Of a DNA stretch of 64,000 nt, positions 2,853 through 60,172 are shown piece by piece. The stretch is from assembly GCA_963799485.1 (NCBI GenBank), contig CAWCXJ010000006.1, forward strand, positions 96,001 to 160,000, given 5' to 3'. Made by a program: the position numbers and the translations under genes. Source of the stretch: an uncultured Trueperaceae bacterium (lineage in GTDB: Bacteria > Deinococcota > Deinococci > Deinococcales > Trueperaceae). A model generated the notes under the pieces. That model was given only the letters and a program-made list of their open reading frames with translations, was not told the DNA's origin and searched no databases. The number at the start of each line of letters is the position of its first letter. The first letter of the stretch is position 1.

Positions 2853-3857
2853 ATGATGAAGGGCTATTCACTAGATTTACGAAGGTGGATTGTTACAGCT
2901 GTAGCAGCTGGGCAGAGCAAGACAGCTGTAAGTGAACGCTTTGGGGTAAGTCACTCTACGGTTAAACGTTATGTTAAACGGCAAGAGCAACGACGACCTG
3001 CGCCGAGCTAACGCCCTGGGCGGCGACGCCTGCTTGATAAAGCTTGTGAAGGGTTGCGGCAACGAGTCAAGACACATCAGAACTGGACGCCCGAGCAACA
3101 TGCTGAAGCGTTGACTGAAGAGACAGGTATCCCAATCAAGAAATCGTCGATAGGTAACTACCCAAAACGGCTGGGATCACGCGTAAGTTAAGTCCAAAGG
3201 CCCCCGGACTTATCCTCAAAAGAGCTTCATTGCCACAGAACGAGACGAAGGAACACGCGAAAGCTACCTCACCGAGGTAGTCGAAAAAGCTACCAGGACG
3301 CTGGTGTTTATAGACGAAACGAGCGCCTATGTTGTACTAGGCCCACTAGGGCCGGGCTCGTTCCCGTACTAGGACAGAGCCGCGAGTACGGCTGGGCAGC
3401 AAGCTGTGAGCGTGTTTGCAATACAAAAGCTAAAGGCCAGAAAGAACGGGTCAGCCTTATTGCTGCGACCAGCTTAGATGGTTCGGTGGCGGAGCAAGCT
3501 TTAGTTGTCTTAGACACGGTGAACAAAAACGCTTTCCTGAGCTTTCTCGAGTCCTTCCTACTCCCGACCCTTGCCGAGGGTAGCATTTTAGACTTGGACA
3601 ACTGGAGCGTGCATCATGGTGAGGAAGTCAGAGAGCTGGTCGAAACGTATGGCTGTGAGCTACGCTACCTCCCTACTTACTCGCCCGACCTAAATCTTAC
3701 CGAACACCTATTTGCCAAGCTCAAAGCCTTCATCAAAAGCCTGCGGCCTGAAACTGCTGAAAAACTCGCTGAAGCCTTTTGCAACGCCGTCAAAACGGTT
3801 ACACCTGAAAACGTCCTCAACTCATTCCAGCACTGCGGCTATGAAGCGGATCAGTAA
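2853..3857 (+). pseudogene. IS630-family transposase, degraded
   Basis: MMKGYSLDLRRWIV HTH N-terminus; in-frame TAA near 3009; frameshift near 3175; LVFIDET, LDNW and LPTYSPDLNLTE DDE motifs; two short hairpin inserts at 3187-3217 and 3331-3373. Confidence 0.9.
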
Positions 3858-3991
3858 ATCGTGGAGGTGCCAAAGCTAAAGAATTGGGGTGAGTATCGAT
3901 ACAACCGTGCGGTTGTAACGAAACTACCAACCGAAACCCCGAAAGCAAGCTGGGCCGCAGCCAAACCGGGCAAAATCTGCAAAAATAAGAC

Positions 3992-4216
3992 ATGAGCGAT
4001 CTTAAGCACACATCCGAAGATGTCCGTCAGATGATACGAGAAATTGAAAATACGCACGCCGACGTGATTCAGATGAGCACCGCCGAAATTGCCTGAAACA
4101 AAGATGTCGTCTACCAGCACGTCCGCTGTACCCGCTTTATCGAGATGGTCGATAGCTTGAGCTGGGTGTTGAGCGAAACGACCGACAAATCGAAGTATCC
4201 GTGTATGGAGGGTTAG
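3992..4216 (+). pseudogene. Possible small hypothetical gene with an internal TGA
   Basis: MSDLKHTSEDVRQMIREIENTHADVIQMSTAEIA*NKDVVYQHVRCTRFIEMVDSLSWVLSE...; protein-like on both sides of the stop at 4094-4096; no family recognised. Confidence 0.25.
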
Positions 4217-4390
4217 TCCGAGGCGTTGGCGAAAGCCGGAATCCCGCCGTGGGCCGAGAATGAACCCGCCTAAACAGCTTGTTGTAAGACGCTGAGACAA
4301 AAGTCAGGGCAAGCTCGAGCAAGAAGCTTGTATTTAGTCCATTCCTAACCCGCACCGACACCAAAAATTCTCCTAAAGAAGGGGCCAACG

Positions 4391-4627
4391 ATGTCGCAAC
4401 ATGAAGACTACACCGCCGACCAGATGGACGCGATCTGGGTCGCGTATCAAACTCAGGGGCGCGCGCTCTGCCCCTACTGTGACAACATTTTAGCGCTCAA
4501 GCTCGAGAGTGACCCGGCAGAAAACGGGGGGCACGACCCGCTTATCTCAGTTGACTGTACCGGTTGTGGGCGGCACGGGACCAACGATCCTGCCAAGCGC
4601 AACCACTCCGAGCAAGACCCGGTTTGA
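4391..4627 (+). CDS. Small zinc-ribbon protein (78 aa)
   Basis: CPYC ... CTGC knuckles; RBS-like AAGAAGGGG upstream of the ATG. Confidence 0.7.
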   Translation: MSQHEDYTADQMDAIWVAYQTQGRALCPYCDNILALKLESDPAENGGHDPLISVDCTGCGRHGTNDPAKRNHSEQDPV

Positions 4628-4747
4628 TTTTTTGTCGACCTACCAAGCGAAAGGCGTAGGATAAGCGGGCTCCAGCTTGTCATTGCGTATGTGAGTAGGT
4701 CGGCCTTTGGATATTAAAGTATTTCCGCCCCTAGTACGTGGACATCC

Positions 4748-4906
4748 AGCTTTGGCCTAGCTGCCATCTTGGTAGTTTGCGCGGCAGCCTGTTGTGACTG
4801 GCGTAGACTGCCTTTGTAGGCACGTAGGCACAACCCGTGTAACTTGGCGCGTTATTTTGGCGTGCTTTTCGCTGTAATAGGCGCCGTTATCTTGAAAGCG
4901 AGCTAA
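4748..4906 (+). pseudogene. Remnant of a small membrane transporter (SMR/DMT-like)
   Basis: Broken hydrophobic frames GLAAILVV... and ...FGVLFAVIGAVILKAS*. Confidence 0.25.
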
Positions 4907-5012
4907 AACCACATTTTACCTATGTTGCAGCAGTTTCCAGCTTGGCTTGTACCGTTTTGAATGCATCCATGAGGTCACACCTTACGCACCTTACGGTTTG
5001 ATACTATGATGT

Positions 5013-5720
5013 GTGCGTGCTGTATTATGTTGTCTTTTGTTTCTACTTGTCTCCGGCGTTTCAGCCGAGCGCTGGACGATTCAGGTGTTCGCCTACGGGC
5101 AGGGTTCGCGCGCCGAACAAATTGCCGAGCAGCTGCGCGGGGTCGGTTACGACGCTTACACGGACGCCGCGCCGGGGGGGACGCTCGAGCAGGTCAGGAT
5201 CGGCTGTTTCGGTGCGCAGGCCGACGCCGGCGCTTTGCTGCAAGATGTGCGGCAGCGGGTGGCACTCGACGCGCTCGTCGTGCCCCTCTCAGAAGACGCC
5301 GAGCCGACGGTTTGCATAGAGCGCGAGCTGGGGTTTATTCCGCCTGAAAACTGGGGGCTCGAGTCGAGCAGCCGGCGTCAAGTAACCTTCTGGTTGGAGG
5401 TCGGTTCAGACAGTGGGCGGCGCAGCATTACCTTCGACGGTGAACGCTGGATGCTAGGGCAGGCCGAAGGTGACCGTTCAGACGTGACGCCCAATGACCT
5501 CGACTGGTTGGACGTGCCGGTCGAGTTATCTGTAGCCCCGCCGTCCGGCCTCGCGGCAACGTTTCGTGCGACCCGGAGCCGGGGCTTGCCCCTTATCCGC
5601 GCCGACCTCGGCGGCGGGTCGCTGCTCGTCACCGCCGGAGAGCTGCTCTGGCGTTCGGCGCGGGCCGCTGTCGTGCAGCAAGGCGCAGATGTCTTTGCGC
5701 TCAGGCTCTACAGGCCGTAA
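5013..5720 (+). CDS. Secreted SPOR-domain protein
   Basis: Signal peptide, then WTIQVFAY...AEQLRGVGYDAY...VRIGCF SPOR pattern. Confidence 0.75.
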   Translation: MRAVLCCLLFLLVSGVSAERWTIQVFAYGQGSRAEQIAEQLRGVGYDAYTDAAPGGTLEQVRIGCFGAQADAGALLQDVRQRVALDALVVPLSEDAEPTVCIERELGFIPPENWGLESSSRRQVTFWLEVGSDSGRRSITFDGERWMLGQAEGDRSDVTPNDLDWLDVPVELSVAPPSGLAATFRATRSRGLPLIRADLGGGSLLVTAGELLWRSARAAVVQQGADVFALRLYRP

Positions 5721-5729
5721 GGTATAAGG

Positions 5730-6587
5730 GTGAGATTCGTCGTCTTATCGGGGCTTTCGGGGGCGGGCCGCACAACTGCGCTGGCCGCCCTTGAAGACCT
5801 CGGCTACTTTACCGCCGACAACGTGCCGCCCGCCCTGTGGGACGAGCTGGTCTCTCAGGCCGGCCCGGTACAACCACGGGTCGCTGTCGGCGTCGGGGTC
5901 CGCACGGCGGCTTTTTTACCCAAGCTCAGCGAGGCGCTGGGCTCGTTACGTTCACGCGATATTCATCCTGAAGTCGTCTTTTTAGACGCGTCCGACGAAG
6001 TGCTCGTCAAGCGTTACAACTTCACCCGCCGTACCCACCCGCTCGGTTACGCGCCGCTGCAACAAGATATCGCCCGTGAGCGCGTGGTGTTGGGTGACCT
6101 CAGGGCCGTTGCCGACACCGTACTCGATACCTCTAGCCTCTCGGCTCGAGAGCTAACTGAAGAACTTCGCCTGCGCTTCGGCGATGAGCGCAAGTTTCGC
6201 CTCAGGCTCTCATCGTTCGGGTTTAAGCGGGGCGTTCCAATCGACGCCGACAACGTGTTCGACCTGCGCTCATTGCCGAACCCCTACTACGACCCGGCCC
6301 TGCGTCACAAAAGCGGCAAAGACCCGGAGGTCGCCGCTTACGTTTTTACCGCCGAGGGATTGGCTTTTTACACCGAACTGCGCGAGTTCGTCAGGCTGCT
6401 GGCGACCCGCGCGCTGGTGACGGGGCGCTCGAGCTACACCGTCGCCGTCGGGTGTACAGGCGGTCAGCACCGCTCGGTCGCCTTTGCCGAACGCCTCAAG
6501 CATGACCTCGCCGACGTTTTTGCCACCTACGCCGAACACCGCGACCTGGCGCTGGCCCTAGCCGAACACGGGGTCGCGCGTGGCTAG
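5730..6587 (+). CDS. rapZ: RNase adapter RapZ/YvcJ P-loop protein
   Basis: SGLSGAGRT, DNVP, RRTHPL, SFGFKRG, DLRSLPNPY and GCTGGQHRSV motifs; precedes yvcK. Confidence 0.95.
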   Translation: MRFVVLSGLSGAGRTTALAALEDLGYFTADNVPPALWDELVSQAGPVQPRVAVGVGVRTAAFLPKLSEALGSLRSRDIHPEVVFLDASDEVLVKRYNFTRRTHPLGYAPLQQDIARERVVLGDLRAVADTVLDTSSLSARELTEELRLRFGDERKFRLRLSSFGFKRGVPIDADNVFDLRSLPNPYYDPALRHKSGKDPEVAAYVFTAEGLAFYTELREFVRLLATRALVTGRSSYTVAVGCTGGQHRSVAFAERLKHDLADVFATYAEHRDLALALAEHGVARG

Positions 6588-7932
6588 GCCGCTCAGTCCC
6601 GGAGAGCTTTCCCGCACACCGGAGAGGCGGTGGGGGCGTCTTGGCAACCTCCGCTACTGGCTGATGCCGGGGATGGGCGTCAAACGGCACATCGCCGTCA
6701 TCGGCGCGGGCGTCGGCGTGCTGCTTGTCGGGGTGCTGCTGGGCGCGTTCTGGCTTTGGGGCAACGGCTACCTGCTGAGCCCGCTCGGGCGCGCTAGCGA
6801 CAGTTTGGGGTGGCGACGTTGGGGCGGCCTGTTGGCACTTTTTCTGCTCATCGGCGGCAGCACACTGGCGATAGTGGCGGTAGGCCGCCTTAACCGCTCG
6901 CTCTTGTCTAACTGGATGCCCAAACCGCGTGACGCCGCCGTACTCTTGCACCGCCGCGTGTCGCTCGCCAAAGGGCCGCGCGTGGTGGCGTTCGGTGGCG
7001 GCACCGGACTTTCCAACCTTTTACGGGGGCTACGGCACTACACCTCGAACATTACGGCGGTGGTGTCGGTCAGCGACGACGGCGGCTCTTCGGGGCGGCT
7101 CCGGGAAGCCTACGGGATTCCGGCACCGGGCGACCTGACCGACTGTCTGGCGGCGCTCTCGGACAACGAACTTCACGTGTCGCAACTGCTCGAGTACCGC
7201 TACGCGCGCGGCGGTGAGCTTAAAGGCCACACCTTCGGCAACCTTTTGATCACTACCCTGACCGAGGTCGAAGGCGACTTTGCGCGGGCGGTGCGCGTCT
7301 TGAATTCGCTCCTGAATATCTGCGGCGCGGTCTACCCGGTTACGACCGAACCGACGACGCTCAAGGTGCTTAAACGCTCCGGCGAGACCGTATTGGGTGA
7401 GAGCAATGTTCGCAGCACGCCCGGAGCTGTAGCGCGGGTGGCGCTCGAGCCCCCAGGCCCCACGCTTGTTCCCGACGTCGGCTTGGCCCTCGCCGCCGCC
7501 GACGTGATCGTCTTGGGGCCGGGCAGTTTGTTTACCAGTACGCTCCCGCCGCTTTTGGTACCGGGCAGCCGCGAGGCTATCTTGGCGTCGCGGGCGTCGC
7601 TCGTTTATGTTTGCAACGTAATGACCGAGGCCGGCGAGACAGACGGTTTTAGCGCCTGGGAACACGTCGAGGCGCTCTACGCACATCTGGGGCGTTATCC
7701 CGACTGGGTGGTCATCAATACCGGTGAGGTCAACGCCGAACGTCTGCAGCGCTACCACGCCGAGGGTGCCGAGGTCGTCGTGTACGACCCGGCGCCTTTT
7801 AGGGCGGCGGATATCGAGGTAGCGACGCTCAACCTCTTAAGTGGCGGCCTCCAGGCCGGGCACGATTCGCAGCGGCTCGCCCGCTGGCTTTACGCGTTTT
7901 GCAAACAGGTGAGGACGAACGCGGGTGCTTGA
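6580..7932 (+). CDS. yvcK: YvcK/GlmR (UPF0052) gluconeogenesis and cell-wall factor with N-terminal TM segments
   Basis: GGGTGLS, DDGGSSGRLR, PGD, GHTFGN and GPGSLFTS motifs. Confidence 0.92.
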   Translation: MARPLSPGELSRTPERRWGRLGNLRYWLMPGMGVKRHIAVIGAGVGVLLVGVLLGAFWLWGNGYLLSPLGRASDSLGWRRWGGLLALFLLIGGSTLAIVAVGRLNRSLLSNWMPKPRDAAVLLHRRVSLAKGPRVVAFGGGTGLSNLLRGLRHYTSNITAVVSVSDDGGSSGRLREAYGIPAPGDLTDCLAALSDNELHVSQLLEYRYARGGELKGHTFGNLLITTLTEVEGDFARAVRVLNSLLNICGAVYPVTTEPTTLKVLKRSGETVLGESNVRSTPGAVARVALEPPGPTLVPDVGLALAAADVIVLGPGSLFTSTLPPLLVPGSREAILASRASLVYVCNVMTEAGETDGFSAWEHVEALYAHLGRYPDWVVINTGEVNAERLQRYHAEGAEVVVYDPAPFRAADIEVATLNLLSGGLQAGHDSQRLARWLYAFCKQVRTNAGA

Positions 7933-8818
7933 ACTTCTCGTCGCCGCCCTCTTGAGCGTCACCGACCCTGCCGGGGATGTAGGAACCAACCTTACCGCGC
8001 CGACAGCCACGATCTTCCGGCAAGGGGACGCGTTCGATATCCGCAGCGTAACGGTGTACGACGCGCCGACGCTGGGTTTTAGCATCGGTCTGGAGAGCCC
8101 GGCGCGTTTCCCGGGAGCGCTGCTCGAGCTTTATCTGGGCGGCCCGGCCTCCTCAACCGCCGGCACAGAATTACTCGCGGGCTCGGCGCTCCGGCTTCCT
8201 GAGGGCGCGTCGTGGCGCTACGCATTTCGCATCGCCGGGAATGACGTCAAGGTGTTTGAACAGCAGGGCGGTCGCCCCGTCGACATTACCGAGGCGAGTG
8301 GCGCGCAGCTCGGCGTCTCCGGCAACATGCTAAACGTCCGGACGATTCTGCCTGTGCCGGAACCCTTGAGCGTTTACGGCATGTCCGGTTCGTTCGATCC
8401 TTTTAGCCCCAGCGGTTGGCGAGAGGTTCGCGCGAAGCCGTCGCCGTGGGGTTTTTCAGGCCGTGCGGCGTCGCCTGTGCTCGATGTTTTAGCCGACACT
8501 CCCGAAGTGCAAGCGCGCGCCCTCGAGCAAGGCGTCTTGCCCGAAGTCCGCGCGTCGGTAAGTAAACCCGGGTGGTTGGCACTTGCCGGGGCCGGCGTCG
8601 TCGTCGCCTGTGCCGGGTTGTTTTTCCGCCTGAGCTCGGGGCGCCGAGTAGAGGTTCCGCCTGCGCTTCACCTAGCGCCCTTTACCGACAAAGACAGGCG
8701 GCGGCGCGCGCGTGTACTCCGCGACCTAAGCCGCGTGCAGGGCAAGCTTGTTTTGGCGAAAGAACCACCCAAAACCGACGCTGAACCTAAACCACCCCCT
8801 GAGCCCGTTCTCAACTAA
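7925..8818 (+). CDS. Hypothetical exported protein (glucodextranase C-terminal/DOMON-like) with a C-terminal TM helix
   Basis: Short signal, then DPAGD...PT...FDIRSV; late TM helix; overlaps the yvcK stop. Confidence 0.55.
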   Translation: MLELLVAALLSVTDPAGDVGTNLTAPTATIFRQGDAFDIRSVTVYDAPTLGFSIGLESPARFPGALLELYLGGPASSTAGTELLAGSALRLPEGASWRYAFRIAGNDVKVFEQQGGRPVDITEASGAQLGVSGNMLNVRTILPVPEPLSVYGMSGSFDPFSPSGWREVRAKPSPWGFSGRAASPVLDVLADTPEVQARALEQGVLPEVRASVSKPGWLALAGAGVVVACAGLFFRLSSGRRVEVPPALHLAPFTDKDRRRRARVLRDLSRVQGKLVLAKEPPKTDAEPKPPPEPVLN

Positions 8819-8832
8819 GCGCGTACTTCTCT

Positions 8833-8877
8833 TTGCGGGGCTGCTCCTTGCGGGGCTGCTCCTTGCGGGGCTGCTAC
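8833..8877. repeat. 15-bp tandem repeat x3 (TTGCGGGGCTGCTCC)
   Basis: Read directly; third copy has one mismatch; lies between convergent genes. Confidence 0.9.
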
Positions 8878-8956
8878 CGTGTCTTTACGGCAGGTGCTCC
8901 GGTTGAGCCGGTACCAGCGGTAACCGGGCCCCGCAGGGTTTGCTAGACCTCGTTTA

Positions 8957-9811
8957 CTAGACCTCATCGCGCCACGAGTGTTCCGGTTCGTACCCCAGCA
9001 CGCGGCGCGCTTTGTCGATAGACAAAAGCGTTTCGTTCGGCTCGACCTCGCGTTTTAGCGGTACCTCCGGAAAAATCTCGGCAAGCAGCTCCGCGTTGGG
9101 CCGGGTCATCACGGTGTCGGCGTTGGCGATGATAAAGACGTCGGCTCCTGTGCCTGCGTACTCGAGCGCGCGCCGCACTGCCTGCGCGCCGTCTCTGGCG
9201 TCGATGTAGCCCCACAAATTCCATTTACGGGTGGTCGCGTCGGCGTCGAAGCTCGGAAACTCGGCGTAATCTTCGGGGTTCATCACGTTGGAAAAGCGCA
9301 AACCGATAATTTTCAGCGCGGGTTCCCAGCGGCAGAACTGCTCTGCCATCGCCTCGCCGAGCGCTTTGGAAAGCGAATACGACGATTCGGGGCGTGCCGG
9401 GTAGTCTTCGTCGAGCGGAATATAGGGTGGCGGTTCGTCAAAGGGGAGACCGAGGAGGGTTTCCGAAGAGGCCCAGACGACATTGTTGATACCCAAAATG
9501 CGCGCGGCGGCAAAAACGTTGTAGGTACCGATCAGGTTGTTCTTAAACAGTGCGGCGTTGGTGACCAGACCCGGAGCCGGAAACGCTGCGAGGTGAACTA
9601 CGGCGTCTACTTTCGGATAGCGGTCGTCCGAGCCGGCAAAGGCGTCTAGCGTTGCGCCGAAATCGGCGAAATCGGTTTGGGTAAAGGGGCAGAGTTGCGG
9701 TTCGGGCGCGTTTACGTCTAGGTTAACGACGGTATAACCGTGCGCCAGCAAGTCCTTGATACAGGCGCGGCCCAGTTTGCCGCTGCCACCGGTTACGGCA
9801 ACTGTAGTCAT
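8957..9811 (-). CDS. NAD-dependent epimerase/dehydratase (extended SDR)
   Basis: TGGSGKLG, HLAA, ASS and YSLSK motifs. Confidence 0.92.
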   Translation of the reverse strand: MTTVAVTGGSGKLGRACIKDLLAHGYTVVNLDVNAPEPQLCPFTQTDFADFGATLDAFAGSDDRYPKVDAVVHLAAFPAPGLVTNAALFKNNLIGTYNVFAAARILGINNVVWASSETLLGLPFDEPPPYIPLDEDYPARPESSYSLSKALGEAMAEQFCRWEPALKIIGLRFSNVMNPEDYAEFPSFDADATTRKWNLWGYIDARDGAQAVRRALEYAGTGADVFIIANADTVMTRPNAELLAEIFPEVPLKREVEPNETLLSIDKARRVLGYEPEHSWRDEV

Positions 9812-9886
9812 GAGCTAGTTTACCCTGCGCCGCACACGAGATAGCCAAATACAAAGTATCCGCCTGGCTCCAGGTCGCGCGCCGGG

Positions 9887-10387
9887 CTATTCCGGTGAAT
9901 CTAGTGTCTGCGCGTCCGGCAAGGGTGCAGGGCCCAGCGGCGTTAAAGAAACCGGCATTAGCGAAGCTATCGCGACCATCAGCTCGAGCCCCTCCAGCAG
10001 CCCCTGTACGCGGGTGCTCGAACCGCCACACTCAACCGAGAGAAGCGCGCCCTCGAGCAAGAAAAGCCTGTCCGTCAGACGCTCTCGCACAACGTCTACC
10101 GCGTCGGCCTCTGCCGTCCCGGTCTTGCTGGCAGCGATTTTGAGGTAGTTGCACGCCATCTGCAGATGCCAGGTAGTGCGCTCCAAGTTGCTGCCGACAC
10201 TCCCCGCCGCCGCTTCCGAAAGGGCGCACAACACGCCCGAAAGTGCTGCCTGCAGGTGTCGGGACACCACCTCGTGACCCTTTGCCGGGGCGTGACCCAC
10301 GACGCTTATGCCCACGCCCATACCCGCCGATATTTGAACGGAAGCCGATACAATCTGTACTGGGTTGAGCCTTCGAAGATAGAACAC
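9887..10387 (-). CDS. Hypothetical protein
   Basis: 166-aa ORF filling the gap, helical-looking; no motif recognised. Confidence 0.45.
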   Translation of the reverse strand: MFYLRRLNPVQIVSASVQISAGMGVGISVVGHAPAKGHEVVSRHLQAALSGVLCALSEAAAGSVGSNLERTTWHLQMACNYLKIAASKTGTAEADAVDVVRERLTDRLFLLEGALLSVECGGSSTRVQGLLEGLELMVAIASLMPVSLTPLGPAPLPDAQTLDSPE

Positions 10388-10552
10388 CTCACCGGGCGGG
10401 TACCTTACCCGAGCCTATGGTATTTTTCACACTATAGCACCGCTATAAAAAATAAAACACTGTACTGCTCGTTAAAAGAACTAGACCTACAAGAACTAAC
10501 ATAAGACCTACGCAGCGCCGACGACCCCAAACGCCCCAAGACGTCCGTACAG

Positions 10553-12106
10553 CTAGCAGATACGCAGTTCGTGCTCGCCTTCGACCGGGAGCGTCAGAAG
10601 TGCGTCCATCACAGCTTTTGTGCCAAATTTGAGAAAAAAACCAAAGGGGCTCAAGAGACGTTCTTGCGGGACGCCGGTGGGGAGCAGGTGCGCGCGCAGT
10701 CGCCCGAACTGCCGGGTATAGACATCATCGCGCTCAGCGAGGGCGGCGGCACTTTTGGTCTCGAGCCTGCTGAAAATCACCTTCAACTCGGCCTCGGCGC
10801 GGCCTACCGTCCGGGAAAGGGTCGGATCGATAGCGGACACGTCGGCGCGGAGTGAAGCTGAAAGATTTTCAAGGGCGCGCAGGCGGTTGTCGAACGCGAG
10901 TTTGTGACCGTGCAAGGCCAAAAGCGTTTGCGTTTTTACGCCCTCCCAGTCCGTTTGCAACGCTCCGGCACTGAGGCCGAACTTGTCCAGAATCCGGGCG
11001 ACGGGTGGTTCCAAAACCGTAACGGTTGTTCGCGGCCAGATTAGCGGCATCGCTACGCCGTGCTGTTCATAAACGCCCCGAAGCTGAGCGATATAGCGCA
11101 GTTCCCCCGGCCCGACGACGGTTGCAGCTGTTGGCAGAACCGCATCTTGCGTGACGGGCCGAAGACCGGCAGCCGGGGTCAGACAGGTCGGGTCGGCGTC
11201 CAAGCGGGCGAGCAGGTCGTCGCGGCTGTAGTGACCTGCGTCTGTATAAAACGTCTGACCGTCAAACCGCAAGAGTTGCCTTTGCCCGTTCGCCGTAAGA
11301 AACACATTCGTCGCGTCGGCGGCCCGTCCGAGTTGCGGCGTGTAGCCCAGCTCGCGGAGGGTGTTAGCAGCAGCGTTGACGGCTCGGCCTGAGCGCAGTG
11401 GGTCACTGAGTTCGGCGCGCAGAACAGGGGAGAAGAGTTCGGCGGCGGCGGGCTCGAGCGGGTTCAGTACAATCAATCCTTGCTCACCTAAAAGCTCGTA
11501 AAGAAGCGCCCCGAACCAGTCGGCGAAGCTTTCGGCGCGTGCGGCGGTGCGGTGCAAGAGGTCGGTTGCCCCAAACTTGTGCGCGTCCGGCCCACGAAAC
11601 GCGTTCAGGTCACGGATCACCTTCTCGGGCCACGCTTCATCAAGCTTAATACGCCCTGCCGGGACGCCTTCGGGGAGCGGCAGCGAAAGGCGGTGGAGCG
11701 TTTCGTCCAAGTCGAGCAAGTAGGTGTGGTCGATTTCGGCGCTGTCGGCGTCTTGACTTGCCAGCCAAAAGATCGGGACGACCGGGCGGGCGTCGGTACC
11801 GAGTTCGGCGGCGAGTTTAAGCGCGCTGACGGCTTTGCTAAGCGTATAGAGTGGCCCCAGCAAAAGCCCTGTTTGCTGCCCGGTAACGACCGCGCGGCTT
11901 TCAGGGTGCGCCAGCTTCGCCAAAGACTCGAAGACCGCTTCGGGCGCGCCGAGCCTTTCCGCCTGCCGCCGCAACACTTGGCTGAGCCTGATTCGGTCAA
12001 CTGGGCGGGGCTGCGCTAGTGCCGCCCCGGTGTTGCCGGGCTCGAGTGCAAATAGCGAGGTCAAGGCGCGGTTTTTGTAGGCGGTTGCAAAAGGGGTCGG
12101 CGGCAC
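10553..12106 (-). CDS. bshC: Bacillithiol biosynthesis protein BshC
   Basis: VVTGQQTGLLLGPLYTLSKA, PIFWLASQDAD, LRPVTQD, GPGELRY and PQER motifs. Confidence 0.93.
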   Translation of the reverse strand: MPPTPFATAYKNRALTSLFALEPGNTGAALAQPRPVDRIRLSQVLRRQAERLGAPEAVFESLAKLAHPESRAVVTGQQTGLLLGPLYTLSKAVSALKLAAELGTDARPVVPIFWLASQDADSAEIDHTYLLDLDETLHRLSLPLPEGVPAGRIKLDEAWPEKVIRDLNAFRGPDAHKFGATDLLHRTAARAESFADWFGALLYELLGEQGLIVLNPLEPAAAELFSPVLRAELSDPLRSGRAVNAAANTLRELGYTPQLGRAADATNVFLTANGQRQLLRFDGQTFYTDAGHYSRDDLLARLDADPTCLTPAAGLRPVTQDAVLPTAATVVGPGELRYIAQLRGVYEQHGVAMPLIWPRTTVTVLEPPVARILDKFGLSAGALQTDWEGVKTQTLLALHGHKLAFDNRLRALENLSASLRADVSAIDPTLSRTVGRAEAELKVIFSRLETKSAAALAERDDVYTRQFGRLRAHLLPTGVPQERLLSPFGFFLKFGTKAVMDALLTLPVEGEHELRIC

Positions 12107-51180: not shown

Positions 51181-51249
51181 TTCGGGCTCGAGCTGCAAAG
51201 CTTTGATTGTCTTTGCTAGAACCCCGCTTTAGTACATCTTTTACGTTCT

Positions 51250-52049: not shown

Positions 52050-52051
52050 AC

Positions 52052-52225: not shown

Positions 52226-52323
52226 CCTGCTACCACGGTGGCAATTTCAAAACACCGGCTCGACTACCGACTCGGTTTTCAAAGCCGAGCCGACACGCAA
52301 AACTAGGAGCTTTAGAGGTATTT

Positions 52324-52923
52324 GTGTTCGACTGGATTCAACAAACGATGACGACGCTCGGGTATCCGGGCGTCGCCCTGCTGATGTTTTTAGAAAACGT
52401 CTTTCCGCCGATTCCCAGCGAGCTGATCATGCCGCTCGCCGGGTTTAGCGCTGCCAGCGGCGACCTCTCGTTTATCGGCGTGGTGATTGCGGGAGCAGTC
52501 GGGTCGCTTTTAGGGCAATTACCGCTCTACTACCTGGGCCGCTGGGCTCACGAAGACAGGCTCGTCGCGTGGGCCGACCGTTACGGCAAATGGCTTACGC
52601 TTTCAGGTAAAGACATCAAAAAAGCCGACGACTGGTTCGACCGGCACGGACACAAAGCGGTATTTTTGGCCCGCCTGGTACCGGGACTGCGTTCGCTCAT
52701 CTCCATTCCTGCCGGGATGAGCGAGATGCCGCTTACGACCTTTTGGCTCTACTCGGCGCTCGGCACCACCTTGTGGGTGCTGCTGTTGACGGCCTTGGGC
52801 GGGCTTTTAGGGCAAAACTACCAGCTCGTCGATACCTACCTCGGGCCGGTCTCGCTCGTCGTGCTCGGGGGGCTGTCGGTCTTTGCGGTTGTCTGGATTT
52901 TACGGCGCAGGGCGCAGCGGTAA
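52324..52923 (+). CDS. DedA family membrane protein
   Basis: LENVFPPIPSELIMPLAG and ARLVPGLRSLISIPAG motifs; start placed at GTG 52324. Confidence 0.93.
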   Translation: MFDWIQQTMTTLGYPGVALLMFLENVFPPIPSELIMPLAGFSAASGDLSFIGVVIAGAVGSLLGQLPLYYLGRWAHEDRLVAWADRYGKWLTLSGKDIKKADDWFDRHGHKAVFLARLVPGLRSLISIPAGMSEMPLTTFWLYSALGTTLWVLLLTALGGLLGQNYQLVDTYLGPVSLVVLGGLSVFAVVWILRRRAQR

Positions 52924-52957
52924 GTCAGGGGCACACTCCCAGTGTTACCGCGCCGCA

Positions 52958-54685
52958 TCACCGTAGAAGGTAGACGCGCGCCTCGTAAGGCTCGAGCATA
53001 AACGACCCGCTAGCCGCCGCCTCGTCTACGGCGTAGTTGCCGATGACAACTTCGGCATTTTCGTAAGCTACCGTCGGCGGCAGCGCGAACTTGGGAGTAT
53101 GACCGCTGAAGTTGGTCACGACCAGCAGCCGCTCGTCCCCCAGTGTCCGGAGGTAAGCGTAAATCTCGGGGTGTTCGGCCAAAATCAGCGTGTAGCTGCC
53201 GTGTACGATGACCGGCAGCTCGTGGCGGAGTTGAATCAGCCGCTGATAATAGTAAAAGACCGAATCCGGGTCGGCTAACGCCGCTGCGACGTTGATCTCT
53301 TTGTAGTTGGGGTTGAGCTTAAGCCACGGCGTTCCGGTCGTAAATCCGGCGTTTTCGCTGCTGTCCCACTGCACCGGCGTCCGGGCGTTGTCGCGGCTTT
53401 TGGCGTAGATCATGTTCATAACCGTTTCGGGTTCCAGCCCCCGGCGCTCGACAAACTCACGGTACATGTTGCGCGTTTCGATGTCGCGGTAGTCGTCAAT
53501 AGACCCGAAGGTGACGTTGGTCATGCCGATCTCTTCACCCTGATAGATGTACGGCGTGCCTTTGAGCAGATGCAAAAATGTCGCCAGCATCTTTGCTGCT
53601 TGTATGCGGTAGGGGCCGTCGTCGGCAAAACGCGAGAGCGCACGGGGCTGATCGTGATTGCTCAGGTAGAGGCTGTTCCACCCGCCCGCCTCGAGTTCTG
53701 TTTGCCAGCGGCTCATCGACCGCTTCAGCGCGCGCAAATCCAGCGCCGTAAAATCCCACTTGCCCAGACCTGTACCGGGTTTGGTATCCAAATCGACGTG
53801 TTCGAACTGAAAGAGCATGTTGAGCTGCCCGGTCTCCTCGTGGGTGATGTCTAACGCATGTTCGACGGTCGCGCCGGGCATCTCGCCAACCGTGAGGATG
53901 TCGTAATGAGAGAGCACCTGTTCTTTCATCTCGGTCAAGAATTCCGGCAACCGTGGCCCGTGCATCACCAGCGCGCCGGGGGGTTGGAACAAGCTGTTGC
54001 TGATGATCGGCGCGTCGGGGAGGCCGGACGCTTTGGAGATGAGGTTGATGACGTCCATCCGGAAACCGTCGATGCCTTTGTCTAGCCACCACCGCATCAT
54101 CTCGTAGATTTCGTTACGGACAGCCGGATTCTCCCAGTTGAGGTCGGGTTGCTTGGGTGAAAACAGGTGCAGGTAGTACTCGTCCGTGGTTTCGTCGTAT
54201 TCCCACGCCGAACCGCCGAAAAACGATTCCCAGTTGTTCGGCGGGCCGCCGTTTTTGCCAGGACGCCAGATGTACCAGTCGCGTTTGGGGTTGTCTCTGG
54301 ATTTGCGCGATTCGGTGAACCACGGGTGTTCGTCGGAGGTGTGGTTGACTACCAAATCCATCAGCAGTTTGATGCCGCGTTCGTGCAACCCGGCGAGCAG
54401 CTCTTCCCAATCTTTGAGCGTCCCGAATTCGTCGGCAATCGCCCTATAGTCGCTGATGTCGTAGCCGTTGTCGTCGTTGGGGCTTTTGTACACCGGGGAA
54501 AGCCAAAGGGCGGTAATACCGAGCTTTTGCAAGTAGTCGAGTTTCTGGGTAATCCCGCGCAAATCGCCGATGCCGTCGCCGTTTGAATCCTTAAAGCTGC
54601 GCGGGTAAATCTGATAGACGACGCCTTCTTTCCACCACAGCTTTCGGGCCGTCGGGGGCTGTATCCCTTTTTCGGTTTGCGTCAT
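52958..54685 (-). CDS. GH13 oligo-1,6-glucosidase/alpha-glucosidase
   Basis: YQIYPRSF.DSNGDGIGDL, DLVVNH, GFRMDVIN, VGE, NHDQPR and SRDNARTP motifs. Confidence 0.95.
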   Translation of the reverse strand: MTQTEKGIQPPTARKLWWKEGVVYQIYPRSFKDSNGDGIGDLRGITQKLDYLQKLGITALWLSPVYKSPNDDNGYDISDYRAIADEFGTLKDWEELLAGLHERGIKLLMDLVVNHTSDEHPWFTESRKSRDNPKRDWYIWRPGKNGGPPNNWESFFGGSAWEYDETTDEYYLHLFSPKQPDLNWENPAVRNEIYEMMRWWLDKGIDGFRMDVINLISKASGLPDAPIISNSLFQPPGALVMHGPRLPEFLTEMKEQVLSHYDILTVGEMPGATVEHALDITHEETGQLNMLFQFEHVDLDTKPGTGLGKWDFTALDLRALKRSMSRWQTELEAGGWNSLYLSNHDQPRALSRFADDGPYRIQAAKMLATFLHLLKGTPYIYQGEEIGMTNVTFGSIDDYRDIETRNMYREFVERRGLEPETVMNMIYAKSRDNARTPVQWDSSENAGFTTGTPWLKLNPNYKEINVAAALADPDSVFYYYQRLIQLRHELPVIVHGSYTLILAEHPEIYAYLRTLGDERLLVVTNFSGHTPKFALPPTVAYENAEVVIGNYAVDEAAASGSFMLEPYEARVYLLR

Positions 54686-54818
54686 AACTAAGCCTACCCC
54701 ATAAGAATTTTTTAGCGTCGATTTTTTGATGTTAGCCGTTCGGAGCATGGCAGGGCAAAGGGTTTGCAAACCGCAGCCGTGTCGTCACGCACCGCCTACT
54801 TCGTTGGGAGTTGGAAAG

Positions 54819-55505
54819 TCAACCGGGCTGCCGCAGCGAGAAGCTTTGAAGCTGCCCGGAATAGGGCGTAACCCGCGCGCCTTGCTGCAACAAAAGCAGC
54901 CCGGAAGCGTCGACCCCGGCCCCGACGCCTTGCTCGAGCCCTCCTGCCGAGAGTAGCTCGAGGCGTTCCCCCAAGAGCAGGTCGAAAGGTGCGTAGGCTT
55001 CGCCCAAGTTAAACGTTTTATCTTCCAGATGAGCCAATCCGCGCCCCAGGCCTTCTAACACAACCATCTGCGCGCCTTGCACGTCCCACCCGCGTAACCC
55101 CACCGCGCCGTCCGGTACCTCGTTATTGACGTTTAAGCCGACGCCGATTAAAAGGTGTCCCTGCACCTGTTCGACCAGCAGCCCTGCCAGTTTTTTGCCT
55201 CGGTAAAAGAGGTCGTTAGGCCACTTGAGCCCAGCCTTTACGCCGTAAGTCGGCAGCACCTCGGCAAGACCGAGCGCGAATACCAGCGCCGCGTAGGGGG
55301 GTGCAGCCTCGAAACGCACGGCGAGGGTTTGGTAGCTGCCGCCCCGCCCCGCCGACCAGTCGCGTGTCCGTCGTCCCCGCCCCGCCGTCTGACACGCCGC
55401 CTGCACCACCAGCCCGTGAACGTCTTCACCCACTGTTAAACGCCGCCGCATCTCGTCTTGCGTCGAGGGCAGAGTATCGAACGAGACAAGCTTGTAGGGA
55501 ATCAT
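54819..55505 (-). CDS. birA: Biotin--protein ligase (no N-terminal HTH)
   Basis: STQ, QTAGRGR, KWPND, KLAG.L.E and G.GLNV motifs. Confidence 0.92.
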   Translation of the reverse strand: MIPYKLVSFDTLPSTQDEMRRRLTVGEDVHGLVVQAACQTAGRGRRTRDWSAGRGGSYQTLAVRFEAAPPYAALVFALGLAEVLPTYGVKAGLKWPNDLFYRGKKLAGLLVEQVQGHLLIGVGLNVNNEVPDGAVGLRGWDVQGAQMVVLEGLGRGLAHLEDKTFNLGEAYAPFDLLLGERLELLSAGGLEQGVGAGVDASGLLLLQQGARVTPYSGQLQSFSLRQPG

Positions 55506-58500
55506 GTGACGAATGCGCCTTCAGCTTCACGGCGAATGCTAAAGACCCGGCTGACGCCCCCTTGCGTCGTGACGCCCCACAACGACGAGGCGACCTCCAT
55601 CGTCGCTTTTTGGTGGGTAATCAGCACAAACTGTGTGCCCCGCTGCGAAAGTTCGCCTAAAAAAGCGCAGAAGCGGCGGATATTGGCCTCGTCCAAGGGC
55701 GCGTCTACCTCATCCAAGATAGCGAGCGGCAAGCCCGAGGTCGGGTTTTCCGGTGTCTCCCCCGAAGTCATCAGCGCAAACAAAAAGGCGAGCGCGCCCA
55801 TCGTTCTTTCGCCGACCGACAAGAGCGAAAGCGCCCGCGTCTGCTTCGTCGGGGGTTGCAAACCGAGTTTGAGCCCTGCCGGACGGCCCTCTTCCCAGAC
55901 AAGTTCGGCGCTCGCCTGTGCGCCTGCGCCGAAAAGCCTCTCGGCGTACCCGGCAAAACCTTTTGCCAGCGCTTCCGTCCCGCTCACCAGCCGAACCCGC
56001 ACGGCGTCGTCCAGGTCGCTCAAGACTTTGGAGAGTTCGGCGGCGGCGTTTTGCGCGTCGCTCATCTGCTTTAGGAGGTCGTCCAGCCGCGCCTGCTGCG
56101 CAGCGTACTCCTGAGCGGCGCGGTGATTGACGGGGCCGAGGGTCGCTAGTTCGGCGTCTACTTCGCCGAGGCGGTCGCGTAAAGCCTTGAGGCCGCTTGG
56201 TAGCGCCGCCACGCCAGCCGGAAAGCCCCGGTGTTCGCTCTCGGCAAGTTCAAACGCGGCCTCGCGGCGTGCCAGCGTGAGATTCAAGGTTTCCAGTTCA
56301 CCTGCGAGCGCGGCCTGCTGACGGGTGAGCGTCTCCAGCAGCGCGTCCGCGTCCGCTTCGGCCCGCTGCGCGGTTTCATATTGCACTTGTTCGGGCGCGT
56401 TTTCGGTGGGCAAGGCGGCTTCGGCAGTTTGGAGCGTGGCCGCAGCCACGTCTCGAGCGGTCACTGCTTCGGCTATCCCTGCCTCCAGTGTACCCAACTG
56501 TGTGCGGAGCGCCGTAAAACGCGTCTGCGCTTCGGCGAAACGCCGCTCGGCGGCGCCAAAGGCGCGCCTTCGTTCGCGCCACAGGGCCAGCGCGCCGTGC
56601 GCCGCCGCGACCTGCGCCCGCGCGTCGCCAAGTAAACCCTGCAACCTTTCCTCCTCGGTTCGTACCGTCTCGAGGGCTGTTTGCAGGGGGGGCAGGTGGG
56701 GGCCGTCCGGTTCGGGGGGAGCCTCGAGCGTCTCCAACGCACCCCGAAGCCCCGCCGCGCGCCGGGTCAACTCAGCCTCAAGTGAAGCGCTCGCCGCCGC
56801 CCTTTCACGGGCCGTCGCCAGCGCTTTGGCGGCAGCTTGCTGCCGAGACTGCGCCGTAGCGAACACCTCACGCTGCGCCTTGACCTCGGTTTGCCGGGCT
56901 GTCAGCGTTTGCGTCAGCGTGTCGGCGAGCATCTGGGCGGTTTCCGCGTCCTGCTCGGCGCGCCTTAGGTCGGCGGCGGCCCCCAGCAGCAACCCGGCAG
57001 CTCCCGCGCGGCCCCCGGAGATTGCGCCGTAAGCCTCGAGCACATCCCCCGTCAGCGTCACAAACCGGGGCCGGGTACGGTGCTTTTTAGCAAGTGATAC
57101 GGCGTCGGGTAGCGTCGTCACGAGCGCCGTCCCGCTTAAAAGCCCCTGCACGAGCCCCCGAAAGCGCGCGTCGCTCCCCGTTACATCACTTGCCAGCGCG
57201 ATTATGCTCTCCTCGGCGGCGAGCGCGGGCGGCAACGCCTGAATACGGTTTTGCATGAGGTCGAGCGGCAAGAGCGTTACCCAGCCTCCGGCTTGCCGGA
57301 CATGCGCCAAAACCTGCTGGGCCGCTGCTGACGACTCGACGACGACGTGTTCGGCGCGCCGACCCAGCGCGCCACCGACCGCCTGCGCGTACTCGGGCGG
57401 CACCGTAATCAGGTCGGCGACCGAACCGATAACCCCGGCGATCCCTGAAGTCAAGGCGCTTTTCGGTCCCTGCGCGTAACCGCGCCGCGCCTCGAACGCC
57501 GCGCGCTGCCGTAAAAGCGCCTGCGTTCGCGCCTGCGCGTCGGCAAAGGCGGCGGCGTGCTCACGCTGGACGGCTACGAGCATTTCTTGAAGGGTCTCGA
57601 GGCCCTCCCGCAACGCTGCCAACGCACCGTCCGCCTCGGCAAAAGTCGTTTCCGCGCCGTAAGTATCGGCCTGGGTCAGGGTTCGCTTTTGTGTTTCGAC
57701 CTCGGCAAGCTGTGCGAGGAGTCCCTCCCGGTTTGCCGTATAGCGGGCTCGAGCCTGGGCCGCTTCAGCGTCGGCGCGCCTTGCGGCCTCGAGCCTCTGA
57801 CCTGCCGCGACGACTTCAGCGCGCACTTTGCTCAGGCGACGCTGAAGCTCGGTCTCTCGTTCCTGCGCCACAGACAAGGTTTCTGCGTGAACGGCTTCAG
57901 TTCCCTCTAAAGGTTCGGGCGGGGTCAGCGCCGCCAGCACGTGGAGCTCTTCAGCGACCCTCGCCCGGTCACGTTGCACCCCTGCCAGTTGACCCTCTGC
58001 TCCCCGGAGCTTTTCAGCCGCGACGCGCACATCACCCCGGCGCGCCTCCGCGTCGGTCATAAACTGCCGGTAGCGGCCCTCGGCCCGGGTGAGGTTGTCT
58101 TTGATAACGCGGCGAGCCTCTTGCGCGTCGGCGAGCGCTTCGCGGCCCTCGAGGAGGTGCGCCCCCAACCCTGCCCCCTTCTCACGTAGCCCCGCCAGCT
58201 CCGCGCTGAGCCCTTCGACCCGCCGCAGTGAGAGCGTAAACCGGAGCCGGAGTTGCTCACGGGTCAGCGCCCCGGCACGTTCGGCTTCGGCGGCCTCGAG
58301 CGCAAGCGCTTCGGCCCGTTCACGCAGTGTCCCGCAGAGGTCGTCCAAGCGGGTGAGGTGGGTTTGGGCTTGCTCGAGGCTCCCGAGCGTCGCCTCGCGC
58401 CGCGACGCGAGCTTCGCCACGCCGACGCTCTCCGCCACATACGCGAGCAATTTCGGCGGGTCGGCCATCAAGACACTGCTGACCTCGCCCTGTCCGATGA

Positions 58501-58897
58501 CCGCCAGGCCGCCGCGCCCGAGGCCGGTACCGGAGAGTTCATCCTCCAGATCCAAAAACCGCGCCGGGCGCCCGCCGACTTTGAGTTTGCTCTCGCCGTC
58601 GCTTGTCAGGGTGCGCGCCACGTTGATATGGCGGCCTTCGTGCTCGAGACCCAAAGTCACCTCGGCAAACCCCAGACTGCGTTTGCCCGCCGAACCGTGA
58701 AAGATGAGTTCGCGTTTGTCCGAGGCCCGGAATTCACCGGCTCGGCCTCCGCTCGAGGCCCACCGGAGCGCGTCGATCAGGTTCGACTTGCCCGAACCGT
58801 TCGGCCCGACAATCGCCGTTACCGGGTCGGTAAACTCGACGGTCGTTTTGTCGGCAAAGCTCTTAAAACCCTGGAGCGTGAGGGAAACGAGGCGCAC
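55502..58897 (-). CDS. smc: Chromosome partition protein SMC
   Basis: GFKSF, GPNGSGKSN, IGQG, coiled coils, hinge (G.IGSV.DL, VTL.GD...GAI.GG), LGPVN, LDEVDAPLDEAN and ITH. Confidence 0.95.
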   Translation of the reverse strand: MRLVSLTLQGFKSFADKTTVEFTDPVTAIVGPNGSGKSNLIDALRWASSGGRAGEFRASDKRELIFHGSAGKRSLGFAEVTLGLEHEGRHINVARTLTSDGESKLKVGGRPARFLDLEDELSGTGLGRGGLAVIGQGEVSSVLMADPPKLLAYVAESVGVAKLASRREATLGSLEQAQTHLTRLDDLCGTLRERAEALALEAAEAERAGALTREQLRLRFTLSLRRVEGLSAELAGLREKGAGLGAHLLEGREALADAQEARRVIKDNLTRAEGRYRQFMTDAEARRGDVRVAAEKLRGAEGQLAGVQRDRARVAEELHVLAALTPPEPLEGTEAVHAETLSVAQERETELQRRLSKVRAEVVAAGQRLEAARRADAEAAQARARYTANREGLLAQLAEVETQKRTLTQADTYGAETTFAEADGALAALREGLETLQEMLVAVQREHAAAFADAQARTQALLRQRAAFEARRGYAQGPKSALTSGIAGVIGSVADLITVPPEYAQAVGGALGRRAEHVVVESSAAAQQVLAHVRQAGGWVTLLPLDLMQNRIQALPPALAAEESIIALASDVTGSDARFRGLVQGLLSGTALVTTLPDAVSLAKKHRTRPRFVTLTGDVLEAYGAISGGRAGAAGLLLGAAADLRRAEQDAETAQMLADTLTQTLTARQTEVKAQREVFATAQSRQQAAAKALATARERAAASASLEAELTRRAAGLRGALETLEAPPEPDGPHLPPLQTALETVRTEEERLQGLLGDARAQVAAAHGALALWRERRRAFGAAERRFAEAQTRFTALRTQLGTLEAGIAEAVTARDVAAATLQTAEAALPTENAPEQVQYETAQRAEADADALLETLTRQQAALAGELETLNLTLARREAAFELAESEHRGFPAGVAALPSGLKALRDRLGEVDAELATLGPVNHRAAQEYAAQQARLDDLLKQMSDAQNAAAELSKVLSDLDDAVRVRLVSGTEALAKGFAGYAERLFGAGAQASAELVWEEGRPAGLKLGLQPPTKQTRALSLLSVGERTMGALAFLFALMTSGETPENPTSGLPLAILDEVDAPLDEANIRRFCAFLGELSQRGTQFVLITHQKATMEVASSLWGVTTQGGVSRVFSIRREAEGAFVT

Positions 58898-59070
58898 AGG
58901 GGTGAGTCTACCAAGCTTGAAGCGAGAAGGCGCTCAGGCCAGGGCGAGCAGGACAACGCAACCTTTAGAGGCTATCGTCACCGAGCATTCTGATAACGTG
59001 GCGAGCAAACCGGTCTTTGACTTCACGGTGTCTGGGGATAGGCTGCGACATCTTTGTACGCGGATTTATG

Positions 59071-60172
59071 TGAGGGGTGTGCACATAAAGGAATAAGGGG
59101 TGAGCCTCCGTTAGTCTGGAACTGCTATGAACGAGAAAACGAAGGCTCAAGACACGGTAACACTCTCCTTAAACGCAGTGCTGAATATAGTGGATGAGCT
59201 GGCGCTCCCGGCTGACTCGGGCAACACCGAGTATTCGACCCGGAGTAAGCTGAAGCTTTACCTGTACATGCTTGTCAAGCACGTTATGGGCTTCAAAACA
59301 CTCGCTAAGCAGTTGCGACTTAAAGACGGGCTGCTAAGCCAGTTCGGTTTGACGGCCCCTCCTCACAGAACGACCCTGAGTCGGCGCTTCAAACAGTTGC
59401 CCTTGGTGTTGCGCGCACAGGTGCGTACCATCCATGCCGACTTTGTGGCCGAGGGCGTCACCCCGGTAGACGCGATGAGTGTCGATTCGAGTCTGATGCA
59501 CGCACAGGTTAAGGCTGAAAGCCTCAGCATTTTCAATGCTCACCTGTTGGCAACGTCTGGCACAAGAAGCAGCGAGCCAAAGGGGAGCTGCCGAGCTGTG
59601 GCAACATCGACCAGGAGGCGCATTGGGGCAAGAGCGGCTGTGGGGAGTGGGTCTACGGCTACCGGCTTCACTGTTTGGTGAGCGGCTGTTCTGCTGCTTT
59701 ACCCTGTGATGTAGAAGTCGCTGCGGCTAACGTCAAAGATGCGCGCGTGTCTAAGGACCTTCTCGCCCCCTCTATACCTGAAGCAACCCAAGTCCTCTTG
59801 GATGACGGCGGTTTTGATGAAGGAGAATGCTACACGCTTTGTGACGAAAAGGATGTCAGCCTCGTTGCGCCCATCAAAGTTAAAGCCAGCACCCCGCCGG
59901 AACGACTCGAACGTGCTCGTCTCTACCACGACCCCGAAGTGCGCGCAACCTTCGCCTTGAGAAAAACCACCGTCGAACCTTTTCAGGGTCGGCTTAAAGC
60001 TCTGTTCGAGCTCGAACATCTTTGCATGAAAGGTATCAAATGTTAGAACCCTCGTTATTCTTGCCACCCTCGCTTACCTACTGCTCGCTAAGCTCAATCA
60101 CCGGCTGGGCCTCGACCTCCTCAAGCTCCAAGACACCCTTATCGCCGTCAGGTGAACCTTGCACACCCCTCA
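59071..60172 (+). mobile_element. Insertion sequence with a DDE transposase (IS4/IS5/IS982-like), inactivated
   Basis: Perfect 13-bp terminal inverted repeats TGAGGGGTGTGCA (59071-59083) and TGCACACCCCTCA (60160-60172); no clear target duplication. Confidence 0.88.
59127..60155 (+). pseudogene. DDE transposase pseudogene
   Basis: PHRTTLSRR, VDSS, D.EA.WG, YGYRLH, DDGG and RKTTVEP motifs; broken by a 41-bp insert near 59508 and a frameshift near 60038. Confidence 0.9.

Follow-up and report, generated by a model that had tools for sequence, protein, structure and literature searches.

Three-helix mini-elements in transposase genes of a Trueperaceae bacterium

Two dead insertion sequences (ISs) in a 64,000-nucleotide stretch of an uncultured Trueperaceae genome (the window, G000:C6:96001-160000) carry three short inserts, which we call ins1, ins2 and ins3. 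We found that ins2 and ins3 belong to two families of miniature elements, A and B, which occur in unrelated contexts without target duplication, nest in one another and are concentrated in IS genes. Within each family the paired bases covary, and the conserved feature is the fold, a three-way junction on one strand, and not the sequence. With a probability of about 0.55, we interpret the inserts as old, partly decayed, non-autonomous elements of ~37–44 bp that resemble repetitive extragenic palindromes (REPs) and whose bias towards ISs need not involve a dedicated anti-IS function.

Three inserts in two dead insertion sequences

The genome (G000) comprises 3.66 Mb in 15 contigs with 59% GC, and positions are given below in window numbering unless a contig is named. 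An earlier reading made from the letters of the window alone (the sequence-only reading) had described both IS copies as dead and each as carrying short extra DNA, and comparison with paralogues bore out both statements. The IS630-family copy, whose ends are approximate because they were taken from the start and stop of an alignment with four paralogues, contains several frame breaks, in-frame stops and a private 1-nt deletion near 3176. The IS4/IS5-type copy, aligned with paralogues on C2, on C12 and at the end of C6, is likewise a pseudogene. All three inserts (31, 38 and 41 bp) are absent from paralogues in the same genome, and since none of these lengths is a multiple of three, the transposase frame is broken each time. 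The boundaries first proposed were exact for ins1, while those of ins2 and ins3 (noted as 3331-3368 and 59508-59548) each had to be shifted by 3 bp (Table 1).

Table 1. Position and definition of the inserts, their host ISs and a riboswitch in the window
Feature	Position	Strand	Evidence and remarks
ins1, 31 bp, one hairpin with a 7-bp stem	3187-3217	+	Paralogue alignment
ins2, net 38 bp, family A element	3334-3371	+	Three empty paralogues; model match extends to 3375
ins3, net 41 bp, family B element	59511-59551	+	Empty in the C2:73625-74348 paralogue
IS630-family copy, dead	~2815-3880	+	Pfam HTH_Tnp_IS630 2853-3008 and DDE_3 3486-3854; hosts ins1 and ins2
IS4/IS5-type copy, dead	59072-60171	+	Pfam DDE_Tnp_1 59519-60043; 12-bp terminal inverted repeats; hosts ins3
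S-adenosylmethionine (SAM) riboswitch, RF00162, 55 bits	34491-34611	+	Sole Rfam match of the window at gathering score

Two families with a common covarying fold

ins2 consists of a GTAC/GTAC closing stem, the dinucleotide TA, a first hairpin (GGCCC-ACTA-GGGCC), a partly decayed second hairpin and a CTAG tail. When the whole IS630 copy was used as a query in related genomes, many 40-bp matches were returned that were confined to the ins2 interval. This repeat, family A, is 37–42 bp long. A 24-nt pattern with up to two mismatches found it in 8 of 251 genomes of the order, and the reversed pattern, used as a control, gave one match among 251 genomes. By the same pattern, 1–6 copies per genome are present in the window's genus and 33 in G127, from another family of the order, where they form intergenic head-to-tail tandem arrays with a 37-bp period and no spacers. 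Many family A arrays were also found in G187. Recent bursts are seen in G127 and G187 and in none of 24 congeners; the congeners of G127 are 70–76% identical to it, and their intergenic DNA does not align with its arrays. Flanks are unrelated from copy to copy, and no preceding base is conserved (aa, ga, tt, ag, tg, cg, at, gg). CTAG stands before hairpin 1 in all 21 aligned copies. The family also has a flipped variant, A′, and a GTAG or ATAG head occurs only in two A′ copies.

Because ins2 is surrounded by an 8-bp direct repeat, it was considered as the footprint of an excised IS. We rejected this candidate: in other genomes the two repeat copies covary as the arms of a stem, and the repeat is missing from the empty paralogues. 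The repeat therefore belongs to the element and is not a target duplication.

Family A copies are themselves entered by ISs. An IS5-like element with eight near-identical copies (C6:1-608 and seven others) ends just before CTAG or CTAA, and this element or a relative sits in the first CTAG of two family A copies, at C6:606 and at C11:1803 (C11:~1790-1806). The right part of ins2 is retained from C6:609 onward, cut there by the IS5-like element. The mini-elements thus serve as landing sites for a CTAG-targeting IS.

ins3 represents family B, which occurs as 17 matches in four of the six genomes of the genus, namely the window's own and three relatives. It matches an intergenic site in G055, a genome with three family B copies, over 44 bp with one mismatch and with unrelated flanks. 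The three-helix fold of ins3 spans 59505-59549, and the host bases ACAGG at 59505-59509 supply half of its closing stem. The family has a variant, B′, and carries the motif TTAAG where family A has CTAG; its copies are preceded by CA in 8 of 10 cases and by GCA in 7 of 10. A two-anchor pattern searched in 185,579 species genomes picked out 28 stretches. Six of them, in two Trueperaceae metagenome-assembled genome (MAG) records, have the fold, and no family B fold was present in the five inspected among the other 22.

The two families follow a common plan, in which a closing stem of 4–6 bp encloses TA, hairpin 1 and hairpin 2. Each insert folds, as had been claimed, ins1 into one hairpin, and ins2 and ins3 into two hairpins with a closing stem. 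The accompanying statement that the inserts are unrelated internally is correct for their sequences and does not hold for their architecture, since ins2 and ins3 share the plan. Folded as DNA, the inserts gave z-scores of −2.2 for ins1, −1.1 for ins2 and −2.7 for ins3, and 5, 29 and 1 of 200 shuffles, respectively, folded equally well. Single-sequence folding is therefore only moderately unusual, and the structural weight rests on covariation within the families. In family A (21 sequences, 13 pairs), 96.3% of cells were paired, compared with 14–45% when the partners were slid. Three forms of the second closing-stem pair are seen (T-A, A-T, C-G), and in one copy hairpin 2 reads CCGC/GCGG in place of GGGC/GCCC. 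In family B (9 sequences, 15 pairs) the corresponding values were 94.1% and 25–41%, with double changes at four pairs. Neither family's covariation score was reached by any of 500 shuffles. Three loci rich in family A or B copies gave no Rfam match at E up to 1.

The history of ins1 is narrower. It is missing from the copies at C7:19000-20350 and C6:635000-636300, and is present in C6:536200-537500 (at C6:536671) and, at the identical site, in a 78%-identical IS630 copy on metagenome contig L149. Together with the window copy, these are three diverged members of one IS630 lineage with ins1 at one site. No copy outside this lineage was found in 61 genomes of the family or in the window's own genome, and one metagenome scan with ins1 returned a single match, in the same IS at the same site. 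ins1 splits a run of A residues (TAA-ins1-AAAAG) at which the frame changes between open reading frame (ORF) A and ORF B in this IS630-like family; where ins1 is absent, the run measures A6 or A7. In several diverged copies (C7:19xxx, C6:635xxx, L022, L026) the helix-turn-helix ORF and the DDE ORF stand in different frames on either side of the run of 6–7 A, which suggests programmed slippage there. All three copies with ins1 have additional frame breaks. We also considered ins1 as a decayed A′ copy and rejected this, as the identity extends over only 10 nt and 4 of 2,000 shuffles and 16 of 2,000 random genomic 31-mers score equally. Three different stop codons at one position of ins1 were likewise set aside: the frame in which they occur is not homologous, and of the four possible A/G combinations three give a stop in any case. 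Two origins are left for ins1: strong decay of a member of this superfamily, or an old, unrelated insertion that became fixed in a single IS630 lineage.

Insertion, nesting and concentration in IS genes

No target duplication was found at any of the six sites with an empty paralogue, in line with the sequence-only reading, which saw no obvious common target duplication at the three inserts. In one IS5-like copy, for example, a 39-bp A′ insert is defined against two empty copies that are 99% identical, again without duplication. At C1:22602-23739 an IS110-family element (DEDD_Tnp_IS110, Transposase_20) lies inside this same IS5-like copy with the 39-bp A′ insert, so that three nesting layers are present.

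The elements also nest in one another. The valS gene of the relative G002 (L045:2085-2205, minus-strand gene) contains a 120-nt in-frame block encoding 40 residues, which is absent from valS of the window's genome. In this block a B-like unit holds a family A unit, which in turn holds an A′ unit, each inner unit occupying a hairpin loop of the one around it. No single unit has a length divisible by three; only the nest of three brings valS back into frame. Two further copies lie at the 5′ end of this gene and just past its stop codon, another triple nest occupies the tyrS leader of the same genome, and in one MAG a B copy sits within the hairpin loop of a B′ copy.

The lack of duplication, the nesting, the GCA before most family B copies and the use of host bases in the closing stem of ins3 together suggest that a folded single strand is inserted in trans into exposed single-stranded DNA. 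An enzyme encoded elsewhere, outside the window, would recognise the folded strand, and the unit would be pasted into other DNA without target duplication, often into the single-stranded loop of another hairpin. A unit that arrived inside an IS would break the transposase frame and would then be copied passively whenever the IS sequence was duplicated, converted or transferred.

Covariance models of family A (R1) and family B (R2) were run on the whole genome. Among the 150 of 1,745 and 150 of 483 first-look candidates scored, respectively, they gave at least 11 family A and at least 5 family B matches, nearly all in IS genes. ins2 was the top match of R1 (60.8 bits) and of nhmmer, and ins3 was the top match of R2 (75.2 bits). 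An exhaustive, sequence-only nhmmer run gave the same strong matches and none that was new. An independent scan for indels of 18–80 bp between repeats had also picked up one element of each family in a single IS1-type copy, at a distance of 350 bp from each other.

Pfam matches in the flanks and alignments placed 13 independent events in this genome. Four are in IS630-type genes (ins1 included), three in IS5-type genes, two in one IS1-type gene (one of each family), and one each in an IS4-type copy, in an IS200 tnpA (W-A-R, 40 nt, G-Y-F), in an IS630/IS3 remnant and in low-GC DNA without a Pfam match. Twelve of the 13 are in IS-derived DNA, which corresponds to a binomial tail of 1e-11 against the 9.9% repeated fraction of the genome, and to 5e-6 even with ISs taken as 30% of the permissive DNA. 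In relatives from the genus, 9 of 13 family B loci are in IS630, IS5 or IS3 genes, two are intergenic and two are of undefined context. The elements' association with transposases is thus both real and strong. For family A, five of the seven distinct sites in G001, G005 and G058 lie within or abut transposase ORFs; the six sites of G002 all lie outside IS genes (hicAB, three at valS, the tyrS leader, and one upstream of a PIN gene). The sites inside IS genes have no common motif. Mean flank GC at the 13 sites is 52%, compared with 59% for the genome, so that IS identity and low GC are confounded.

Copies are also shared by descent of the host sequence or by exchange between copies of it. ins1, ins2 and the IS1-borne family A copy each occur at one site in two to three diverged paralogous IS copies. 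Between the two ISs with ins2, identity is 100% over the 60 bp that follow the insert and falls to 73–87% beyond. ins1 is conserved at 27–30 of 31 positions, compared with 69–78% identity for the surrounding IS (p ~0.004–0.02 per pair, the pairs being non-independent), and the shared family A pair at 37 of 42, compared with ~70% around it. Because copies are carried along as ISs multiply, tolerance and hitch-hiking can produce a bias towards ISs; together with a preference for low GC, they explain it more simply than an anti-IS role would. Its most likely causes are tolerance of insertions by ISs and low-GC foreign DNA, amplification and spread of passengers by the ISs, and conversion between paralogues. 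An anti-IS function of the mini-elements is no more than a possibility, given the intergenic copies and those in a relative's valS.

Other short repeats and indels were noted in the genome. A solitary 133-bp fragment homologous to the IS1-type copy, with the family A insert of that copy, lies between recO and a gene for an EAL-domain protein (C7:377581-377713). Near-identical IS copies also differ by other short indels (C13:484614-484649/C10:22744-22779; C6:714215-714240/C9:158871-158896), among them a 36-bp segment with a GAACA/TGTTC stem that is missing in a 95%-identical copy, and a 26-bp segment missing in a 96–98%-identical copy. Both may be mini-elements of other types. A 14-mer census of the genome for abundant short repeats found nothing above 24 copies; besides GC-rich triplet runs, the most frequent 14-mers contain GCTCGAGC (CTCGAG).

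Mobilisation, rival explanations and known systems

A structure-recognising enzyme had been put forward as the agent that inserts the units. For ins2 and ins3, which have copies in unrelated places, this is still the natural reading, but no enzyme was found. Y1 domains (PF01797) were matched at 12 loci in the five genomes examined. Within these loci there was no family A or B unit with both motif ends, only isolated short-motif matches, and no parent IS with the same hairpins was found beside the 12 Y1 genes. The low-scoring PF01797 match in the window's own genome is an IS200 tnpA cut by an IS5-like element. G187, rich in family A arrays, has no PF01797 match (99% completeness, 240 contigs). 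With no flanking Y1 gene and with G187 devoid of the domain, we rejected an HUH/Y1 transposase, whether of IS200 type or a REP-associated tyrosine transposase (RAYT), as the mobiliser as far as tested. The GTT start at which, in the sequence-only reading, all three inserts could be placed is only a matter of placement, since the GTT before ins2 belongs to the host and family A copies follow varied bases. Integron-type recombination fared no better, as there is no shared G/TT boundary and the copies are dispersed, intI itself not having been searched. Nor did CRISPR repeats match the inserts: short-word BLAST of the three against the genome revealed no array and no further copies.

Several observations weigh against the interpretation as REP-like miniature elements. 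No mobilising enzyme was found, and transposition is thus something we infer. Tolerance alone fits 12 of 13 events poorly, so that some real preference may exist. Shared inserts are better conserved than the dead ISs around them, which passive decay does not predict. Copy numbers per family in this genome are low (1–11), unlike those of classical REPs. ins1 was picked up by neither family model nor by nhmmer. The valS comparison is one between species, with ValRS proteins that are 64% identical, and not between near-identical genomes. Finally, the candidates scored by R1 and R2 were part of the first-look list, although the nhmmer run left the picture unchanged.

The concentration in transposase genes could also reflect true targeting, if the elements or their enzyme preferred such genes or the intermediates of transposition or transfer; the elements would then be hyperparasites or parts of an IS-sterilising system. 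The twelve events in genes of at least six IS types, with their small binomial tails, speak for this, as do the family B loci of the relatives and the family A sites in G001, G005 and G058. In addition, two IS copies each hold two different elements (the window IS630 and an IS1 at C9:89 kb), and every measured insert breaks the reading frame. However, the family A sites of G002 avoid IS genes altogether, the copies in G127 form intergenic arrays, no motif is common to the sites within IS genes and no associated gene was found. Being an IS is, moreover, confounded with low GC, and ISs are also the main DNA that is neutral, amplifies and moves horizontally. We consider targeting unlikely, and still less credit goes to a spread mainly by homing-like gene conversion among IS paralogues, in which true transposition would play little or no part. 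Conversion would favour ISs because they are the only multi-copy homologous DNA, and it agrees with identical inserts at identical sites of diverged paralogues, with the tract of full identity beside ins2 and with inserts better conserved than their flanks. It cannot, however, put one unit into different IS families, into valS or into unrelated intergenic sites. The better-conserved right flank of ins1 is equally conserved in a paralogue without ins1, so that no co-conversion tract is shown for this insert.

Unique local mutations, such as template-switch or slippage products or footprints of excised ISs, would require no element family at all. ins1, confined to one IS630 lineage, would suit such an origin, and so would the other 18–80 bp indels between IS copies in this genome and the host bases in the closing stem of ins3, which are compatible with microhomology. 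For ins2 and ins3, however, other genomes hold near-identical copies with unrelated flanks, and the folds covary; local mutation, and with it the single-copy template-switch case, is ruled out for these two and is improbable overall. The inserts might finally be functional parts of their ISs, RNA or recoding signals, with ins1, for instance, modulating the frame change between ORF A and ORF B. ins1 indeed lies exactly inside the A-run of that frame change, has no stop in the ORF A frame of any of the three copies, has two of its four substitutions synonymous in that frame and exceeds its flanks in conservation; in G005, a B′ copy lies where orfA and orfB of an IS3 meet. Against a functional role, all three copies with ins1 have further frame breaks, neither matched bypass codons nor a standard slippery heptamer beside the hairpin was found, families A and B occupy many unrelated genes and intergenic sites, and no Rfam family matched. 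Translational bypass, as known from T4 gene 60 and the mitochondrial byps elements, was rejected for ins1 and ins3, which have no matching take-off and landing codon pair at the right spacing. It was rejected for ins2 as well: codons of its 8-bp repeats (GTA, CTA) could pair, yet the take-off codon is followed by neither a stop nor a rare codon. A functional role is the most improbable of these alternatives, and we retain the interpretation as REP-like miniature elements.

REPs are imperfect palindromes of 20–40 bp with an unpaired GTAG or CGTC head (Di Nocera et al. 2013, PMC3733652). Deinococcus, Thermus, Meiothermus and Truepera do not occur in the main text of that paper, which also mentions Rickettsia palindromic elements (RPEs). 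Measured against REPs and REPIN-RAYT systems, the elements described here are alike in being short, dispersed, non-coding palindromes that are sometimes tandem or clustered and presumably act as folded single strands. REPs, too, occur occasionally within ORFs, including tRNA synthetase genes, and within other small palindromes, and ISs insert into them. The differences are as clear: a closing stem with two different hairpins here, compared with one hairpin or a REP dimer, and a head that is CTAG (family A) or absent (family B) instead of GTAG or CGTC, with GTAG or ATAG confined to A′. There are 1–33 copies per genome and not hundreds, no RAYT-like gene is flanked by the repeats, element-rich G187 is without a Y1 gene, and most copies in the window's genome are in transposase genes and not extragenic.

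To our knowledge, the way in which most very small repeats (REPs, small dispersed repeats (SDRs) and RPEs) move is not established. RPEs, of ~100–150 bp, are tolerated in frame inside essential protein genes. The 120-nt triple nest in valS of G002 likewise resides in frame in an essential gene, but its sequence is unrelated, its units are smaller and the frame is restored only by three of them. SDRs are reportedly hairpin-forming units of 21–27 nt, apparently mobile, that nest in one another. By analogy, families A and B may be compared with them as very small, mobile-looking and nested hairpin units, unlike SDRs in phylum, sequence, size (37–44 bp here) and three-helix junction; a bias towards IS genes is not known from SDRs. 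Miniature elements derived from IS200/IS605, such as palindrome-associated transposable elements (PATEs), move by single-strand 'peel and paste' transposition, make no target duplication and contain hairpins. The absence of duplication and the hairpins are common to both, and the position of family B after GCA in 7 of 10 copies possibly reflects insertion at a short motif; in contrast, such elements need a pair of ends that by far exceeds our units in size, family A has no conserved flank and no parent IS was found. Integron attC sites are folded single-stranded recombination substrates that lie in cassette arrays beside the integrase and recombine at G/TT. They share with families A and B the character of a folded single strand, but are longer, and neither cassette arrays nor a common GTT is seen here. 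Miniature inverted-repeat elements of DDE transposons differ in the target-site duplication, which is missing at the six sites with an empty paralogue.

SDRs are known from heterocystous cyanobacteria (Elhai et al. 2008, as cited in PMC5861425). The papers searched described neither such elements for Deinococcus-Thermus nor mini-repeats that concentrate in transposase genes; the lists of species and intragenic REPs that supplement PMC3733652 may bear on this novelty. New here are the two covarying three-helix families, their nesting in hairpin loops, in-frame carriage in an essential gene and concentration in transposase genes of at least six IS types. It is conceivable, if rather doubtful, that they represent a hitherto undescribed Deinococcota class of ~40-bp three-way-junction elements that prefers transposase genes of many IS families and its own hairpin loops and is moved by an enzyme other than Y1 or RAYT, either as hyperparasites or as IS sterilisers exploited by the host.

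The bursts in G127 and G187, set against 24 congeners in which no family A copy was found, offer a concrete route towards the enzyme responsible. Should the concentration in transposase genes come from real targeting, transposons would be subject to a new level of parasitism or control. Should it come from hitch-hiking, IS elements act as vehicles for still smaller passengers.

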